Assembly (NCBI GenBank): GCA_903837175.1
Contig: CAILTR010000101.1
Location: 1-57,358 of the forward strand
Direction: 5' to 3'
Length of the DNA: 57,358 nucleotides
DNA from: an uncultured bacterium
Lineage (GTDB): Bacteria > Patescibacteriota > Minisyncoccia > Moranbacterales > GWC2-37-73
Below are positions 45,024-52,231 of the stretch, one piece after another. Numbering within the stretch: position 1 is the stretch's first letter; each line of letters starts with the position of its first letter. The notes under the pieces were generated by a model. It saw nothing but the letters and a program-made list of their open reading frames with translations, was not told the origin of the DNA and did no database searches. The position numbers were made by a program, and so were the translations under genes.

Positions 45024-46019
45024 ATGGTTCAATTCACGCGTAAAAAAATTGATTCACTGACCTTGGGTGAACGAATGAAAAAGCTTAGGGATGAGCGTCG
45101 GCTTAGTCTTGGTGAGATTTCAAAAGGCACGAAAATTCAAACAAAATATTTGCAATATTTCGAAGAAGGTGAATATATGAAGTTGCCAGCAGATGTTTAT
45201 GTAAGGGGCTTTTTGCGAAGTTATGGTCTATATATGGGGGTTTCAGAAGCTAGCCTTATTAAGCAATTCGAGCGAGAAAAAGGTATTCATAAAAATATCA
45301 AGAAAATTGTCGATGAGGATAAAATTAAAAAGCCGATAAATTTTTCAATTTTTGTTATTACACCAAAAATGATTATAGTGGGAATTATTTTATTAACAGT
45401 GCTAAGTAGTTTTATCTATTTATATCTGCAGGTTAATAATTTTATTTCAACTCCGCGACTCATTATTGTTAAGCCGGCAGATGGTTTGGTGGTTGATGGT
45501 ATATCAACTCGCGTAGTAGGGATGGCTGAAAAAGATGCGCTAGTAACTATTAATGATCAACCAGTTTTGGTTAATGAAAAAGGTGAATTTAGCGAAGATA
45601 TTGGGCTCAAGGATGGTGTTAATGTAATTACAATTAAGGCTCGTAATAAATTCAACAAAGAAACAACTCAGTCAATTTCCGTTAACGCTGTTTTCCCAGC
45701 GCCTCCAATGCAGCAGCAGGAGAGTGATTCTTCGCAAGAGGCAAGTCAGCAAGTTTCCCTAGTAACTGCTGAGGTTTATGTTAGTCCTGATTCAACTTGG
45801 CTCTCAGTGGAGGCTGATGGCAACTTAGTTTATAGTGGGGCAATATCTCCAGGGACAGTTCAAAAATTTGATGCCAGAGAAAAAATTAGTATAGGTTCAG
45901 GCAAGGGTAATGAAACTTTCGTAAAAATCAATGGAAAGGATTTGGGGCGATTAACCTCAACTTCTGCTCCAGCAAAAGACATTGTTTTTGATGTAAATGG
46001 TAGGGTTTTAAATAAATAA
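45024..46019 (+). CDS. rodZ: RodZ-like cytoskeleton-associated protein (HTH, TM, DUF4115-like C-terminus)
   Basis: LGERMKKLRDERRLSLGEISKGTKIQTKYLQYFEEGEY HTH, single TM, extra beta-rich middle domain, C-terminal DUF4115-like block. Confidence 0.7.
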   Translation: MVQFTRKKIDSLTLGERMKKLRDERRLSLGEISKGTKIQTKYLQYFEEGEYMKLPADVYVRGFLRSYGLYMGVSEASLIKQFEREKGIHKNIKKIVDEDKIKKPINFSIFVITPKMIIVGIILLTVLSSFIYLYLQVNNFISTPRLIIVKPADGLVVDGISTRVVGMAEKDALVTINDQPVLVNEKGEFSEDIGLKDGVNVITIKARNKFNKETTQSISVNAVFPAPPMQQQESDSSQEASQQVSLVTAEVYVSPDSTWLSVEADGNLVYSGAISPGTVQKFDAREKISIGSGKGNETFVKINGKDLGRLTSTSAPAKDIVFDVNGRVLNK

Positions 46020-46188: not shown

Positions 46189-47235
46189 ATGGCTTACGCA
46201 GCAAAAGAAAAAAAGCCTCCAAAAGAGGCAGTTGAGGAAATAAAAAATGCAGGCAAAAAAGAAATTGATAAATTAGTCGAAGATATTCAGGAGAAATTTG
46301 GGGAGGGGATGATTATGAAATTGGGCGATGTAAAAAAAGTTGACGTCGAGGCAATTCCGACCGGTTCAATCTCACTGGACATTGCTACAGGCATTGGTGG
46401 CGTACCCAGGGGTCGAATTATCGAGGTGTATGGGCCAGAAAGTTCCGGTAAAACGACTTTAACGCTACACATAGTGGCCAATGCTCAAAAGGGCGGAGGC
46501 ACGGCTGCTTTTGTTGATGCTGAACATGCGTTGGACCCAGAATATGCTCATAAGATTGGAGTGGATATTAAAAACTTATTAGTTTCTCAGCCAGATACTG
46601 GTGAGCAAGCCCTGGACATTGTAGAGTCCTTAGTGCGCAGTGGGGTGATTGATGTGATCGTGGTTGACTCGGTGGCAGCCCTGGTACCACGCGCTGAAAT
46701 TGAAGGTGAGATGGGAGATCAGCACGTTGGACGCCAAGCTCGCCTGATGTCACAAGCCCTGCGAAAATTGACCGCAATTATTGCGCGTTCCAATACGACC
46801 GTGATTTTCATTAATCAAATTCGCATGAAGATTGGGGTAATGTTTGGTAATCCGGAAACGACCACTGGTGGACAAGCGCTGAAATTTTATTCTTCAGTGC
46901 GGATTGAAGTTCGCAAAGCTGCTCAAATTAAAAAAGGTGAAGACGTAGTGGGCAATCGCGTGAAAGTTAAAATTGTAAAAAATAAAGTAGCTCCGCCATT
47001 TAAGACTGCTGAATTCGATATCATGTATAACGAAGGAATTTCCTTAGCCGGAGATCTCTTGGATGCAGGGGTAAAATTTGAAGTGGTTAAAAAATCTGGT
47101 AATTCACTTTCTTACGGCGAGATTAAGCTTGGAGCTGGTCGCGAAAGCGCAAAGGCATTCCTGCGAGAAGATAAAAAAACCGCCGACAAAATTTTTAAAG
47201 AAATTGCGGCCAAAGCAAAGATTGTGGCTTTGTAA
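46189..47235 (+). CDS. recA: recombinase RecA
   Basis: 348 aa; GPESSGKTT Walker [10 protein letters not shown]1/L2 loop regions. Confidence 0.97.
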
Positions 47236-47271: not shown

Positions 47272-47311
47272 AAAAGATGATTCCTGGATATAGTTGGAGT
47301 CATCTTTTTTA
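47272..47311 (+). terminator. recA terminator (module shared with 57275-57312)
   Basis: AAAAGATGATTCC-loop-GGAGTCATCTTTTTT. Confidence 0.8.
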
Positions 47312-47327
47312 ATAACAAAAATTAGGG

Positions 47328-47356
47328 TTGACCGCTTTTATTAAATAGTGTAAAAT
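47328..47356 (+). promoter_or_regulatory. promoter of the TasA-like/SipW operon
   Basis: TTGACC-17 nt-TAAAAT with TGt extension. Confidence 0.55.
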
Positions 47357-47510
47357 AAAGTATACTTTTGATATAAGTTAGGGTGTTAATTAAATTAATT
47401 AACCAATCAACAAAAAAATTGTGCGGTTTTTTTTGTTTTATTGGGCTAAAAAATAAAAATTCAAAAATAAAAAAGTTACATCATTATTAGCGGTTATTTA
47501 TTTAAAGGTA

Positions 47511-47540
47511 AATCCACCATTTGGCGGATTCGTTTTTTTT
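47511..47540 (+). terminator. terminator-like hairpin in the TasA-like operon leader
   Basis: AATCCACC-ATTT-GGCGGATT (one mismatch) then CGTTTTTTTT, ~30 nt before the start codon. Confidence 0.4.
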
Positions 47541-47568
47541 CTTTTTAATTATTATATTTTTTATGCAT

Positions 47569-48174
47569 ATGAATAAAAAAGTTTGGTATTCAATAATTGT
47601 AATTGGGGTGGTGGCAAGTCTTGCCATTGGCGGAACTTATGCTTATTTTACTGCAACTAGAACAACCAGTGCTAATAAGTTTACTGCTGGGACCTTAGAT
47701 CTTAATGTGGCTGCAAGTACCGGGGAGCTTACTCCCTTTGTGATTGAAAATATGGGGGAGGGAACGAATATTAGTGGGACAAAGACTTGGACCATTAAAA
47801 ATACTGGGTCTTTGCCGGGACGCTTACTTTTAAATTTACAAAATGTAGTTAATTCTGAAAATGGTTGCAATGACCAAGAGAAGACTGCTGATCCGACTTG
47901 CGATACGGCTAGTAAAGAGGGTGACCTCGGCAAAGTGGTGAATCTGAAAATTAAGCTTGGTGACGTAGATAAGGTAAGTTCAACGCTGGCAGCTGACCAA
48001 CAAGCAAAGATTGGAACTGACTGGGCAGCTTTGGAACCAATCATTTTACAGCCGAGTGAACAAAAAACTGTAACTGCTTATTGGACAACTGATGAGAGTT
48101 CATACGGAAATGAAATTCAAAGTGATGCTGTTCAATTCGATATTAACTTTCGTTTAGTCCAATTAATTAAATAG
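47569..48174 (+). CDS. TasA/camelysin-like secreted subunit 1 with SipW-cognate signal peptide
   Basis: MNKKVWYSIIVIGVVASLAIGGTYAYFTATRTTSANKFTAGTLDL matches the TasA/CalY N-terminal signature; IKNTGSLPG and C-terminal QFDINFRLVQ blocks. Confidence 0.8.
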   Translation: MNKKVWYSIIVIGVVASLAIGGTYAYFTATRTTSANKFTAGTLDLNVAASTGELTPFVIENMGEGTNISGTKTWTIKNTGSLPGRLLLNLQNVVNSENGCNDQEKTADPTCDTASKEGDLGKVVNLKIKLGDVDKVSSTLAADQQAKIGTDWAALEPIILQPSEQKTVTAYWTTDESSYGNEIQSDAVQFDINFRLVQLIK

Positions 48175-48238
48175 GGGTTAGCTAGTGTAATCTTTTTTAG
48201 CGCGAGCTTCCTGCATAAATAAGCAAACAAAAGAAGGA

Positions 48239-48270
48239 AAAATAAGGCAACCCTGGCGTTGTCTTATTTT
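48239..48270 (+). terminator. intra-operon hairpin with T-run after TasA-like subunit 1
   Basis: AAATAAGGCAAC-CCTGGC-GTTGTCTTATTTT. Confidence 0.5.
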
Positions 48271-48283
48271 CATAAAAAATAAA

Positions 48284-48787
48284 ATGAAAGTGATTAAAGT
48301 TATTTTTAGTGGTTTAAAGCTTCTTATTGTACTTAGTATCTTACCGTTAGTAGTTTTTGCGATTAGTTCGCATTTTAATGAACAGAGTAATTATCGTCCC
48401 TTCTTAGTACAATCTGGTTCGATGGAGCCAGCTGTTATGACGGGAGATATTATTGTGATTCAACGTAAGGATACCTATGCGATTAATGAGGTGGTGACCT
48501 TTAGGAGTGATAATGATAAGTTGGTTACCCATCGGATCGTAGACGTGCAGCTAGGTTCGAATAAGCAGTACCTTACCAAAGGAGATGCTAATCGAACTGA
48601 GGACAAAGCTATTATTTCAGATAGTCAAATCGTAGGAAAAGTTTTTCTAGTTTTGCCAAAGCTGGGTTACTTCGTAGCCTTTGCCCAATCCCAACGAGGT
48701 TTAATTTTTCTGTTAATCATCCCAGCGGTAGTTTTAATTTTAGATGAAATTTTGAAAATCAAGAAAAATGTCAAAAACAGGGATTAG
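48284..48787 (+). CDS. SipW-type (archaeal/ER-type, S26B) signal peptidase I, copy 1
   Basis: 167 aa; boxes SGSMEP, GDIIVI, VTHRIV, TKGDANRTED; N- and C-terminal TM segments. Confidence 0.85.
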   Translation: MKVIKVIFSGLKLLIVLSILPLVVFAISSHFNEQSNYRPFLVQSGSMEPAVMTGDIIVIQRKDTYAINEVVTFRSDNDKLVTHRIVDVQLGSNKQYLTKGDANRTEDKAIISDSQIVGKVFLVLPKLGYFVAFAQSQRGLIFLLIIPAVVLILDEILKIKKNVKNRD

Positions 48788-49352
48788 GAAAGTAGCAATC
48801 TTTTTAATGCTATTTTATATTTTTTTAAATCAGACCGGGTATACGACCGCGGATATTTTTGCCGAGAGAATTGTCAGGCAAAATAAATTTTCCGCCACCA
48901 CGCTTGATTTTTCTACAAGAAACTCCTTTAATAATGCCTCCGCCAGTAGTCTTTTTCGAACTTTGGGTCTAGCGTCCGGAGGCTTTGATCTTGGAGCACT
49001 TAAATTAAAATTAGAAACTAAGGGTAAAACTAAATATCAATTGAGTTTCGAGAGAACTAACGGTGACGAGGTTTTTTGCAGTCGCTTAACAGTTAAAGTT
49101 TTAGATAGCCAACTGCATGAATTTTATCAAGGTCCGCTCGTTAAACTTGCGCTAAATGAAACGGTGGCGAACGTAGCTGATGCTCAGAACTTTATTTTTT
49201 TTATTGGACTTGACGAGCAAGCAGCCGAACTGAAAAATAAGATTTGTGAGTTTAACTTTAAATTTAAAACTTATCGTGAGAGTCCAACTGAAAAAGGGGG
49301 GATTTTTGCGCAACGCTTGATTGGTAATGTTGTTTCGAGTGGCAGTTGGTAA
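48768..49352 (+). CDS. TasA-like secreted subunit 2 (divergent)
   Basis: 194 aa; signal-anchor then TTADIFAERIVRQNKFSATTLDFS, parallel to the subunit 1 signature; overlaps peptidase 1 by 20 nt. Confidence 0.6.
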   Translation: MSKTGIRKVAIFLMLFYIFLNQTGYTTADIFAERIVRQNKFSATTLDFSTRNSFNNASASSLFRTLGLASGGFDLGALKLKLETKGKTKYQLSFERTNGDEVFCSRLTVKVLDSQLHEFYQGPLVKLALNETVANVADAQNFIFFIGLDEQAAELKNKICEFNFKFKTYRESPTEKGGIFAQRLIGNVVSSGSW

Positions 49353-49403
49353 ATTCGGGAAAAAAGCCTATACTGAATTTAGGCTTTGTAAAAAAATAAA
49401 AAT

Positions 49404-49925
49404 ATGTTACACGAGCGGATAGAAAAATATTTAAATTCTCGCTGGTATGCTTTTTTTCTGCCTTTTTATTGTATTTTTGTTATTTTGATAATTATTTTTT
49501 CGGCCGATATTCCTGGACCATTTCACAGTTTAACTAATAATATTTCAGATTCAATGGATCCAGTTATTAACCGGAATAGTTTGACTATTGTTAAAAGTGT
49601 TTCAGCGTATAAGGTGGCTGATATTATCGCTTATTATAGCTTAGTTGCTGGTCGAACTGAGCTTATTACGCATCGAATCGTTAGTATTGGCGGTAATGTT
49701 TACACCACAAAGGGTGACGCGAATGAAGTTGCTGATCGTGAGTTAGTTCCTCCAAGGCTGGTTATGGGAAAAGTGATTTTAATTATTCCCTTTCTGGGGC
49801 TATTTATTTCAATAGTGAAGAGCTTCTGGGGGACTTGGTTTTTTATTATCCTGCCAGCTCTGCTAATTATTTCTTTTGAGGGAATTCGGATTATTTTGGA
49901 GTTGGAAAAAAACAGTAGAGATTAA
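49404..49925 (+). CDS. SipW-type signal peptidase I, copy 2 (divergent)
   Basis: 173 aa; boxes SDSMDP, ITHRIV, TKGDANEVADRE; same TM topology as copy 1. Confidence 0.75.
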   Translation: MLHERIEKYLNSRWYAFFLPFYCIFVILIIIFSADIPGPFHSLTNNISDSMDPVINRNSLTIVKSVSAYKVADIIAYYSLVAGRTELITHRIVSIGGNVYTTKGDANEVADRELVPPRLVMGKVILIIPFLGLFISIVKSFWGTWFFIILPALLIISFEGIRIILELEKNSRD

Positions 49926-49947
49926 ATTTATTTAGTCTTAACATTGC

Positions 49948-49981
49948 TAAAAACCCGACCTTTAAAGGTCGGGTTTTTTTA
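49948..49981. terminator. bidirectional terminator between SipW copy 2 and efp
   Basis: AAAAACCCGACC-TTTAAA-GGTCGGGTTTTTTT. Confidence 0.85.
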
Positions 49982-50030: not shown

Positions 50031-50588
50031 TTAGGCTCTGGAAACGTATTCGCCTTTCTCAGTGTTGATAATAAGTTTGTCACCTTCGTTGATGAAAAGT
50101 GGCGTAGAAACTTTTAGTCCTGTTTCCATCACCACAACTTTGCCGCCAGTGCCGGAAGTGTCGCCCTTGATTCCTGGGGGAGCTTCAACGACAGTCAGGG
50201 TTACTTTAATTGGAAGCTCAATATTAACAGGGATATCGTTAAAATTAAGTACCGTCACTTCGGTTCCTTCAAGTAAATAAAGGGGCGCGTTGCCAATGGT
50301 TTCTTTTGAAAGGGAAAACTGATCATAAGAAGCCATATCCATAAAAACAAAACCATCTTGCTCAGCGTAAAGATATTGAGCTTTTGATTTTGACATATCC
50401 GCTTCATCGGCTTTGTCGCTACCGTTGAAAGTTTTTTCCAAAACACTTCCGTTGAGCAAATTTTTAAGCTTAGTGCGAAGCACCGCTCCGGCGCGTCCGG
50501 TTTTAGAATGTTCCGCCGAGAGAACAACGTAGGGCTGGTCTTCCCAGAGAATATTTTTCCCGCATTTGATATCACTTAGTCCTAGCAT
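50031..50588 (-). CDS. efp: elongation factor P
   Basis: 185 aa; EF-P motifs (SKTGRAGAVLRTKLKN, VEAPPGIKGDT). Confidence 0.95.
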   Translation of the reverse strand: MLGLSDIKCGKNILWEDQPYVVLSAEHSKTGRAGAVLRTKLKNLLNGSVLEKTFNGSDKADEADMSKSKAQYLYAEQDGFVFMDMASYDQFSLSKETIGNAPLYLLEGTEVTVLNFNDIPVNIELPIKVTLTVVEAPPGIKGDTSGTGGKVVVMETGLKVSTPLFINEGDKLIINTEKGEYVSRA

Positions 50589-51619: not shown

Positions 51620-52231
51620 TTAGATGTTTAGCAGTTCATCAAGTTGCTTATCAATATCTTTGGGAGTTTCCTTCATAATCTCTTTAGCGATTTCTTTTTT
51701 CTCAAGCTCTTTGACAACTTCTACTTTTTCAACTTTTGGGGTAGCGACTATTGGCTTTGGAGCCACTGCGACTGGGGTAGGCGTAGTTCGCGTTGGTTTT
51801 ACGAATTGTCTTGGAATTTCTCTTTTTTCACTTCGTTGCGGTCGGATTGCTTCTGGACGTTGAGTTTTTAGCTCTTGGGCTTTGCGACGTTCTTTAGCTC
51901 CAAGCTCAGGCAGGTCTTCAGTTTTCACAATTAAAAATCTCAAAACATCGCTAGTCAAATTCAATTTATTGTTAATAGCAGAAATTCCAAATTCTTTTTC
52001 GCCATTTTTTTCATCTGCCCAAAAATCAATGTCTTCCAATTCAAAACGACGGGTAACATAAGTTCCCTTGTTTTGGTGCTTGATTTCATAGGACAATTTT
52101 CTCTTTTCAGTTAGTTCTGGTTCAAGGAGCTTGGCTCCTTCTGCGACTAACATTGTGCTTACACCTGCTCGAATTGTTTCGAGATTTGGTTCCTGGTTTT
52201 GTCCAACGAGGTAGAACAGTTCGTACTGCAT
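51620..52231 (-). CDS. rpsF: 30S ribosomal protein S6 with long C-terminal extension
   Basis: N-terminal ~110 aa are S6-like (YELFYLV ... KRKLSYEIKHQNKGTYV); ~90-aa K/E/P/T-rich tail; rpsF-ssb-rpsR order. Confidence 0.85.
   Translation of the reverse strand: MQYELFYLVGQNQEPNLETIRAGVSTMLVAEGAKLLEPELTEKRKLSYEIKHQNKGTYVTRRFELEDIDFWADEKNGEKEFGISAINNKLNLTSDVLRFLIVKTEDLPELGAKERRKAQELKTQRPEAIRPQRSEKREIPRQFVKPTRTTPTPVAVAPKPIVATPKVEKVEVVKELEKKEIAKEIMKETPKDIDKQLDELLNI

Follow-up and report, generated by a model that had tools for sequence, protein, structure and literature searches.

A conserved Patescibacteria gene cassette with a TasA-family subunit, a TapA-like minor subunit and two SipW-like signal peptidases is a candidate extracellular fibre system

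The tapA-sipW-tasA operon of Bacillus subtilis embodies an established principle, in which an extracellular fibre is made by donor-strand exchange from a TasA subunit with the help of a SipW-type signal peptidase and an initiator. The TasA donor strand comprises residues 28-38 (Boehning et al. 2022, PMC9674648; Roske et al. 2023, PMC10151520). TapA has a flexible N-terminus that is homologous to the TasA donor strand and nucleates assembly, its body is an immunoglobulin (Ig) fold with a C92-C188 disulfide, its gene overlaps sipW, and the TasA:TapA ratio is approximately 100:1 (PMC9674648; PMC10151520). Here we describe a locus of four genes between recA and efp, at positions 47,328 to 49,981 of a 57,358-nucleotide (nt) contig from an uncultured Patescibacteria bacterium (CAILTR010000101.1; the whole stretch analysed is called the window below). 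An earlier note made from these letters had read the locus as a duplicated TasA/camelysin-like subunit plus SipW-type signal peptidase operon and as a candidate fibre-assembly system. Its system-level reading is upheld by the profile matches of subunit 1 and of both peptidases, by the likeness of the subunit 1 model to the TasA fibre, by synteny and by a conserved hairpin. The locus is probably a self-contained TasA-type extracellular fibre system, with an abundant subunit (S1), a rare starter or tip subunit (S2) and two dedicated signal peptidases (P1 and P2). The four co-directional open reading frames (ORFs) lie exactly where the earlier note had placed them (Table 1), including the 20-nt overlap of P1 and S2.

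Set beside the B. subtilis operon, the locus has the same kind of major subunit, i.e., a protein of Pfam family PF12389 with a SipW-type signal peptide, a dedicated signal peptidase of the endoplasmic reticulum (ER)/archaeal type within the operon, and an accessory gene that overlaps the peptidase gene. S2 is like TapA in its donor-strand-mimicking mature N-terminus, Ig-like body and Cys pair, and is predicted to share the low abundance of TapA. The differences are equally clear. The order is accessory-peptidase-major in B. subtilis and major-peptidase-accessory-peptidase here, with two peptidase paralogues instead of one; S1 is shorter than TasA and carries a conserved disulfide-type loop (C100/C111); S2 has no detectable sequence similarity to TapA; and, unlike in tapA-sipW-tasA, a hairpin inside the operon appears to govern stoichiometry. 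S2 is a TapA analogue that stands outside the TapA family.

Table 1. Features of the locus, with positions in the window (aa, amino acids; dG, folding energy; z, folding energy relative to shuffles of the sequence)
Feature	Position	Strand	Length	Description
S1 (subunit 1)	47569-48174	+	201 aa	TasA-family (PF12389) major subunit
P1 (peptidase 1)	48284-48787	+	167 aa	Archaeal/ER-type (SipW-like) signal peptidase I; two hydrophobic segments
S2 (subunit 2)	48768-49352	+	194 aa	Predicted minor subunit; TasA-type N-terminal module and Ig-like beta-sandwich body
P2 (peptidase 2)	49404-49925	+	173 aa	Second archaeal/ER-type signal peptidase I paralogue
S1 SipW-type signal peptide	47569-47643	+	aa 1-25	Predicted cleavage after G-T-Y-A; TIGR04088; hydrophobic aa 4-25
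S1 predicted donor strand and linker	47644-47703	+	aa 26-45	YFTATRTTSANKFTAGTLDL; putative
S2 predicted mature N-terminus	48852-48911	+	aa 29-48	DIFAERIVRQNKFSATTLDF; donor-strand-like, right after the invariant T-x-A motif
recA intrinsic terminator	47272-47311	+		Hairpin, dG -17.4 kcal/mol, z -4.0, then T-run
Candidate sigma-70-type promoter	47328-47356	+		TTGACC-17-TAAAAT; 10/12 match, best in region; putative function
Leader hairpin and T-run	47511-47540	+		dG -7.6, z -1.3; 23/200 shuffles fold as well
Post-S1 stem-loop, U-rich 3' arm	48239-48270	+		dG -13.2 kcal/mol, z -3.4
Small S2-P2 spacer hairpin	49363-49387	+		dG -9.4, z -2.5; minor, lineage-specific
Strong intrinsic terminator between convergent P2 and efp	49948-49981	.		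dG -20 kcal/mol, z -5.3; 0/200 shuffles as good

Profile searches place S1 above the curated cut-offs of both models that matter here. It scores 43.9 bits against PF12389 (TasA/Peptidase_M73; cut-off 22.5, E-value 3.1e-11) and 37.5 bits against the SipW-cognate signal-peptide model TIGR04088 (cut-off 19, residues 9-43); the PF12389 match extends over residues 2-141 and profile positions 3-136 of 196, so that only the N-terminal two thirds of the profile are covered. The start codon, ATG 47569, is the one used by homologues (MNKKVWYS...). There are 331 S1 homologues, the best 120 of them at 59-97% identity, which is very high for a surface protein of the candidate phyla radiation (CPR). Those that carry a name are all from Patescibacteria, and several have already been called 'TasA family protein' by NCBI; the names of homologues and of related-locus records include Woese-, Levy-, Roizman- and Gottesmanbacteria, Moraniibacteriota, Paceibacterota, Nealsonbacteria and Saccharibacteria. 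By primary sequence TasA itself is out of reach, and the S1 profile gave only chance matches among Protein Data Bank (PDB) chain sequences. The AlphaFold2 (AF2) model of S1 is a confidently folded beta-sandwich of approximately 175 residues in its mature form (predicted local distance difference test score, pLDDT, 88.5). Its top Foldseek match in the PDB is the TasA fibre 8AUR (E-value 4.7e-5, template modelling (TM) score 0.50), the sole match with an E-value of 1e-3 or lower, so that the expected TasA jelly-roll is the closest fold, at a modest score. After it come 7UEG (archaeal bundling pili), 7PNB (the Sulfolobus thread) and pilins of the chaperone-usher type; every one of these matches, like TasA itself, belongs to a donor-strand filament.

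The N-terminus of S1 points to the same mode of assembly. By likeness to TasA, cleavage is expected after G-T-Y-A, where conservation of T23 and A25 reaches 90% or more, and the 20 residues that follow match in position TasA residues 28-47, i.e., the donor strand plus linker. Within this segment, A29, F38, G41, T42 and D44 are invariant in the family alignment. Judging from this conserved N-terminal strand and from the fold neighbours, we infer that S1 would polymerise via N-terminal donor-strand exchange. C100 and C111 are also invariant and lie in an acidic loop, ENGCNDQEK...C (47884-47901; residues 96-111), that has no counterpart in S2; by analogy with the AbpX clade of the TasA superfamily, this loop could bind a metal (perhaps calcium) or be stapled by a disulfide. 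At its other end, S1 here stops at ...RLVQLIK (48160-48174); most homologues run on into a conserved NGxxPxN tail. P0060, a homologue at 97% identity, likewise has 201 residues, so that the short C-terminus is a trait of the lineage rather than a fault of the assembly.

Both peptidases are membrane-bound and of the archaeal/ER type, the latter as the earlier note had proposed. Against TIGR02228 (archaeal/ER-type signal peptidase I; MEROPS S26B; cut-off 51.85), P1 scores 100.9 bits and P2 68 bits, and neither protein reaches the cut-off of the bacterial-type model TIGR02227 (29 vs 47). The expected boxes are all present: SGSMEP (residues 44-49), THRIV (82-86) and KGDAN (99-103) in P1, and SDSMDP (48-53), THRIV (89-93) and KGDAN (103-107) in P2. 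P1 aligns with human SEC11A/C across the SGSMEP, HR and KGDxN boxes, and all 25 of its orthologues keep S46, H83, D101 and D107. On alignment, the catalytic Ser and His are kept together with Asp in P1 and P2, in place of a Ser-Lys dyad. The equivalog model for Bacillus SipW, NF046067, has a cut-off of 190 that neither protein reaches (P1, 113.4 bits; P2, 64.3 bits); P1 and P2 are therefore SipW-like in type and context, and not SipW orthologues.

The two peptidases are paralogues, as had been claimed, and the duplication is not a recent one. P1 and P2 are 33% identical and form separate orthogroups: P1-type genes invariably sit between S1 and S2, and P2-type genes invariably after S2, which argues for an old duplication rather than a recent tandem one. 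The P2 gene is absent in L004/L012, L010 and L017, and in 3 of 23 orthologues (L015, L019 and L021) Ser, His and Asp have all been lost; the copy studied here is intact, as are those of most lineages. S2 nevertheless keeps the motif YT[DTS]A-D[IL]FAER where P2 is absent or catalytically dead, suggesting that P1 is probably sufficient for both S1 and S2 and weakening the idea that P2 is a dedicated and necessary S2 peptidase. P2 may be a redundant enzyme, a specialised enzyme or a non-catalytic partner. The residue after the predicted cut, Asp in S2 and Tyr in S1, could speak for specialisation. It is conceivable, if doubtful, that P2 is more than a spare enzyme and forms a platform in the membrane onto which the conserved C-terminal strand or tail of S2 docks, thereby nucleating and anchoring a TasA-type fibre for attachment of CPR cells to their hosts; the survival of catalytically dead P2 in some lineages and the existence of adhesin-tailed S2 proteins and of peptidase-S2 fusions would fit a role without catalysis. 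In L015 (4458-5787) and L019 (538-1867), the dead P2 directly precedes an extra S1-like TasA-family gene of 275 aa, i.e., a differently elaborated cassette.

S2 is the cryptic member of the locus. It has no match at all in Pfam or NCBIfam, PF12389 and TIGR04088 included, so that the SipW-cognate signature that had been ascribed to both subunits is confirmed by a model for S1 and seen for S2 only in profile-profile comparison. Its homologues are all annotated as 'hypothetical', and the family comprises 576 representatives at 50% clustering. PF12389 is matched by 2 of 67 family members and TIGR04088 by 1 of 67; among long S2 relatives, 4 of 10 pass the PF12389 cut-off, across the N-terminal 80-100 residues only. 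The most conserved segment of the family, Y-T-[DTS]-A / D-I-F-A-E-R-x-V-x-x-N-K-F-S-A-x-T-L-D-F, lies just past the hydrophobic stretch and includes the invariant residues T26, A28, D29, A32, R34 and N39. It aligns without gaps to G-T-Y-A / Y-F-T-A-T-R-T-T-S-A-N-K-F-T-A-G-T-L-D-L of S1, with 9 of 20 residues identical between S2 residues 29-48 and S1 residues 26-45. In the AF2 monomer (pLDDT 81), residues 26-47 are the sole stretch with a pLDDT below 50 and are thus disordered though best conserved. A strand that is the most conserved part of S2 and among the most conserved parts of S1 fits an intermolecular interface.

Beyond this module, the kinship of the two subunits fades. In hhalign profile-profile comparisons, the S1 family aligns to a narrow S2 alignment over 42 N-terminal columns, comprising the signal peptide and first mature strand (E-value 5e-5), and to a wide S2 alignment over 156 columns (probability 95.8%, E-value 7e-9). 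From the cleavage site onward the probability is 87.9% (E-value 3e-6), and with the first 45-48 residues removed it is 1.8% (E-value 0.028), like the reversed control. We have accordingly withdrawn the idea that S2 is a remote full-length S1 paralogue, since the signal vanished with the N-termini. The N-terminal modules (signal peptide, T-x-A site and donor-strand-like segment) are homologous as judged from their sequences, and it is this part of the 'duplicated subunit' of the earlier note that stands; for the body of S2 neither the comparison above nor the fold supports duplication. The body is modelled as a ten-strand beta-sandwich with invariant C104 and C160. According to the secondary structure of the models it has two strands more than S1, one of them an extra C-terminal strand, and the sandwich thus appears to be already complete. 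Its Foldseek matches are generic Ig-like folds, namely PapD-like domains, the tip adhesins CfaE, FimH and CupB6, and PAD4 N-domains, all with a TM score of 0.44 or lower; the archaeal bundling pilus 7UEG ranks 28th, and TasA is not among the 50 matches listed. S2 profiles searched against all PDB chain sequences at E-values up to 10 gave chance matches only and retrieved no TapA or TasA, on the assumption that TapA chains (6HQC, Roske et al.) are present in that set. S2 resembles a TapA-like starter or a minor or tip subunit, and is better described as such than as a duplicated major subunit.

The four-gene block is conserved well beyond this genome. S2-containing loci were found in at least 24 GTDB species representatives of Patescibacteria, which is a lower bound set by an exact-pattern scan. 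The order S1-P1-S2-P2 is present in at least 18 of these 24 loci; 3 lack P2, and a contig end or a rearrangement interrupts the other 3. S1 and P1 are adjacent in every locus with both genes in view. The flanking genes are recA and efp here and in close relatives, and elsewhere Peptidase_M23/HTH, TrmB/LytR or IleRS/CAP; since the order of the block is kept amid wholly different flanks, it behaves as a cassette. An overlap of P1 and S2 is seen in 21 of 25 loci, and in 15 of these it measures exactly 20 nt; the S2-P2 spacer is short (median 8 nt) or overlapping in most. Other lineages fill the S2 slot with proteins of 400-1166 aa, in which an S2 domain is followed by LTD, fn3, Big_13 or CBM96 modules; in L032, for example, the order is TasA-like protein, peptidase and a 692-aa S2-LTD protein. 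Two representatives, P0310 (646 aa) and P0329 (1166 aa), are peptidase-S2 fusions with an N-terminal SipW-type peptidase, an S2 domain and LTD/fn3 tails. Given the usual 20-nt overlap of P1 and S2, these could be either true fusions or frameshift artefacts. Some records call for care: in L024 (2790-3410), S1 is split into ORFs of 102 and 101 aa, possibly a pseudogene or a sequencing frameshift, and L011, L013, L015, L020, L023, L024 and L026-L029 are third-party (TPA) assembly records titled 'uncultured Gammaproteobacteria bacterium', probably mislabelled metagenome-assembled genomes.

The control elements of the locus were assessed by folding hairpins directly, as a consensus terminator scan missed three real ones, probably because their A/U tracts pair. 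The upstream recA gene has its own strong terminator, which makes the cassette a separate transcription unit. The promoter proposed by the earlier note is present. Sigma-70-like matches in the region are not above chance (9 found, 14.3 expected from shuffles), and support for the promoter comes instead from its footprint in relatives: in L030 and L031, whose S2 proteins are 88% and 77% identical to the one here, the hexamers and the 17-nt spacing are kept and the surrounding spacer has diverged. The hairpin that had been put forward as terminator-like in the leader fares worse. It folds no better than shuffled sequence and is missing from L031, so that we reject it as an attenuator; it is probably not functional. 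A permissive Rfam search of the leader region gave no riboswitch or leader RNA, the only sub-threshold match being to a small RNA on the recA terminator. The terminator closing the cassette is present and strong, and with A and T tracts on either side it could work both ways between P2 and efp.

By contrast with the leader hairpin, the stem-loop after S1 is a recurrent element. P1 starts 109 nt downstream of S1 here; across loci the spacer has a median of 68 nt, and in 18 of 20 it holds a strong hairpin (z below -2; median z -4.5) whose position is conserved. The hairpins differ in sequence from locus to locus, usually with an A-rich 5' arm and a U-rich 3' arm. In the classical pap and fim operons, a stem-loop after the major pilin gene leads to its excess expression. 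The stem-loop of the present locus may similarly act as a partial terminator or 3' mRNA stabiliser, putting S1 in excess over the downstream genes, which is in line with the stoichiometric role that the earlier note had suggested for it.

Three other groups of systems bear comparison. The Bacillus cereus locus sipW-tasA(calY1)-bc_1280-calY2 likewise combines two secreted proteins with SipW-type N-termini and a peptidase; its CalY and TasA are clear full-length paralogues, whereas S1 and S2 share the N-terminal module only, and it has one peptidase plus the chaperone-like BC1280/CapP, which has no counterpart here. The archaeal TasA superfamily, with the AbpA/AbpB bundling pili (Wang et al. 2022, PMC9245690), AbpX (bioRxiv 10.64898/2026.01.04.697558) and the Sulfolobus threads, has jelly-roll or Ig-like subunits joined by donor-strand complementation, often an adjacent TIGR02228-type peptidase, and accessory subunits (minor, tip or anchor), certain of which carry distal beta-domains that have been suggested to be adhesins. 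Unlike the present cassette, the AbpA locus lacks a dedicated peptidase; the AbpX peptidase has approximately 10 transmembrane helices compared to two or three hydrophobic segments in P1 and P2, and two peptidase paralogues have not been reported for any of these filaments. Pili of the chaperone-usher type (Fim, Pap and CFA/I) also use donor-strand exchange and have a minor subunit as tip or adhesin, with CfaE and FimH among the fold matches of S2. They differ in having an usher, a periplasmic chaperone and another envelope and secretion route, and the likeness is an analogy only, with no evolutionary relationship.

Taken as a TasA-type fibre system, the cassette might work as follows. One promoter would drive S1-P1-S2-P2, and the hairpin after S1 would terminate or 3'-stabilise most transcripts, leaving S1 in large excess over P1, S2 and P2. 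Sec would export both subunits, and a SipW-type peptidase would cut after T-x-A, for which P1 may be enough. Cleavage would free the N-terminal strand, and S1 could then polymerise head-to-tail by donor-strand exchange, like TasA. S2, which presents a near-identical N-terminal strand on a different and apparently complete Ig-like sandwich with an extra C-terminal strand and a Cys pair, would donate its first strand and so nucleate, and possibly anchor or cap, the fibre, like Bacillus TapA. P2 would be an auxiliary paralogue that acts either as another processing enzyme or as a docking partner in the membrane. A role in cell-cell or cell-host adhesion, or in a matrix, is likely, and the LTD, fn3, Big_13 or CBM tails of S2 in sister lineages suggest that S2 is an adhesin or anchor. 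Several points weigh against this reading. S2 lacks a sequence match to TapA, TasA, PF12389 or TIGR04088, its body does not align to that of S1 above the level of the reversed control, and the completeness of its sandwich was read from strand counts in secondary-structure output. The fold-match TM scores are modest for S1 as well as S2, the U-tract of the post-S1 hairpin is interrupted, and the cell could be using P1 and P2 as its general signal peptidases.

This last point leads to an explanation in which S1 and S2 are non-fibre secreted or surface proteins (e.g., a monomeric matrix protein or adhesin) and P1 and P2 are general signal peptidases of a reduced genome, linked by chance to abundant substrates. 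Polymerisation of S1 is a prediction, and TasA also occurs as a stable monomer. We nevertheless find this account rather improbable: the peptidase genes accompany those of S1 and S2, as one cassette, in unrelated genomic contexts, peptidase-S2 fusions exist, S1 finds its best fold matches exclusively among donor-strand filaments, and the strongly conserved N-terminal strand fits an intermolecular interface. A fibre in which S2 is a second structural subunit, co-polymerising along its length as CalY does with TasA in B. cereus and with each peptidase serving the adjacent subunit, is unlikely too. It would account for the donor-strand-like N-terminus common to S1 and S2, for an hhalign match of 156 columns when the N-terminus is included, for the PF12389 scores above cut-off that some long S2-family members reach within their first 80-100 residues, and for the alternation of subunit and peptidase genes. 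It sits poorly with the dissimilar bodies, with the two extra strands of S2 including the C-terminal one, with a gene placed behind an attenuating hairpin and translationally coupled to a low-abundance peptidase, with a cleavage site that persists where P2 is absent or dead, and with the adhesin-tailed S2 proteins that fill the slot in sister lineages.

Two further readings come from annotation. The Pfam family bears the names Peptidase_M73 and 'Camelysin metallo-endopeptidase', which would make S1 a camelysin-type (MEROPS M73) metalloprotease. S1 contains zero histidines, however, so that neither an HExxH motif nor any other His-based zinc site is possible, and the solved family members that it matches are structural fibre subunits; we therefore reject this reading, which has very little chance of being right. 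Several homologues have received the automatic JGI name 'predicted ribosomally synthesized peptide with SipW-like signal peptide', yet a 175-residue, confidently folded beta-sandwich with no modification enzymes in its cassette makes a peptide precursor barely credible. TasA-type fibre assembly by S1, with S2 as a rare starter or tip, is the explanation that we prefer.

The setting of the cassette within the window was also surveyed. Pfam matches confirm the flanks as recA (46189-47235) upstream and a convergent efp (50031-50588) downstream. A RodZ-like gene precedes recA, and efp is followed on the other strand by rpsR, ssb and rpsF. No further copies of the cassette genes were found in the window. 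The RodZ-like protein (45024-46019, + strand; HTH_25 and RodZ_C), encoded directly upstream of recA, bears an inserted Glucodextran_B-type beta-domain, an architecture that is also seen in L031. Ribosomal protein S6 (51620-52231, - strand) is 203 aa long, with the Pfam S6 match confined to residues 2-66; the remainder is a long Lys/Glu/Pro-rich C-terminal extension, and the length is kept (204 aa) in L030 and L031. The GC content of the window is approximately 35-44%, and at the gathering threshold neither tRNA or rRNA genes nor Rfam matches were detected in it. GC skew is positive in every 1-kb bin from 1 to 57358, and most long ORFs are on the + strand, suggesting that the window is part of one replichore with a leading-strand gene bias.

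Patescibacteria already figure in a survey's list of PF12389-bearing phyla (Wang et al. 2022, PMC9245690). We searched the literature for an operon-level or experimental description of such a locus in CPR bacteria, of the second peptidase or of the S2 family, and found only this phylum listing. The claim that the layout is uncharacterised in a reduced genome thus holds for the operon within the literature searched, and has to be qualified for its major subunit in view of the listing and of the 'TasA family protein' names given by NCBI. The cassette is real and widely conserved; it is a variation on a known system rather than a machine of a new type. What is new is the gene order, the two old peptidase paralogues and a cryptic initiator-like subunit that is not homologous to TapA.

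For the S2 family, the cassette gives a 'hypothetical' group with hundreds of members a probable function and a family context. The two ER-type signal peptidase paralogues in one operon offer a natural case that could help to explain the non-cleavage roles of SipW-type enzymes in fibre assembly. CPR bacteria are ultra-small and thought to be mostly episymbiotic, and their attachment is usually ascribed to type IV pili. The cassette points to a second, simpler CPR surface-fibre system besides these pili, as suggested by its compactness and mobility between contexts, by the unusual conservation of S1 across several CPR candidate phyla and by an S2 slot that can bear adhesin domains. If P2 does act as a docking platform, this would be a conserved appendage, other than the type IV pilus, for the attachment of CPR bacteria to host cells.

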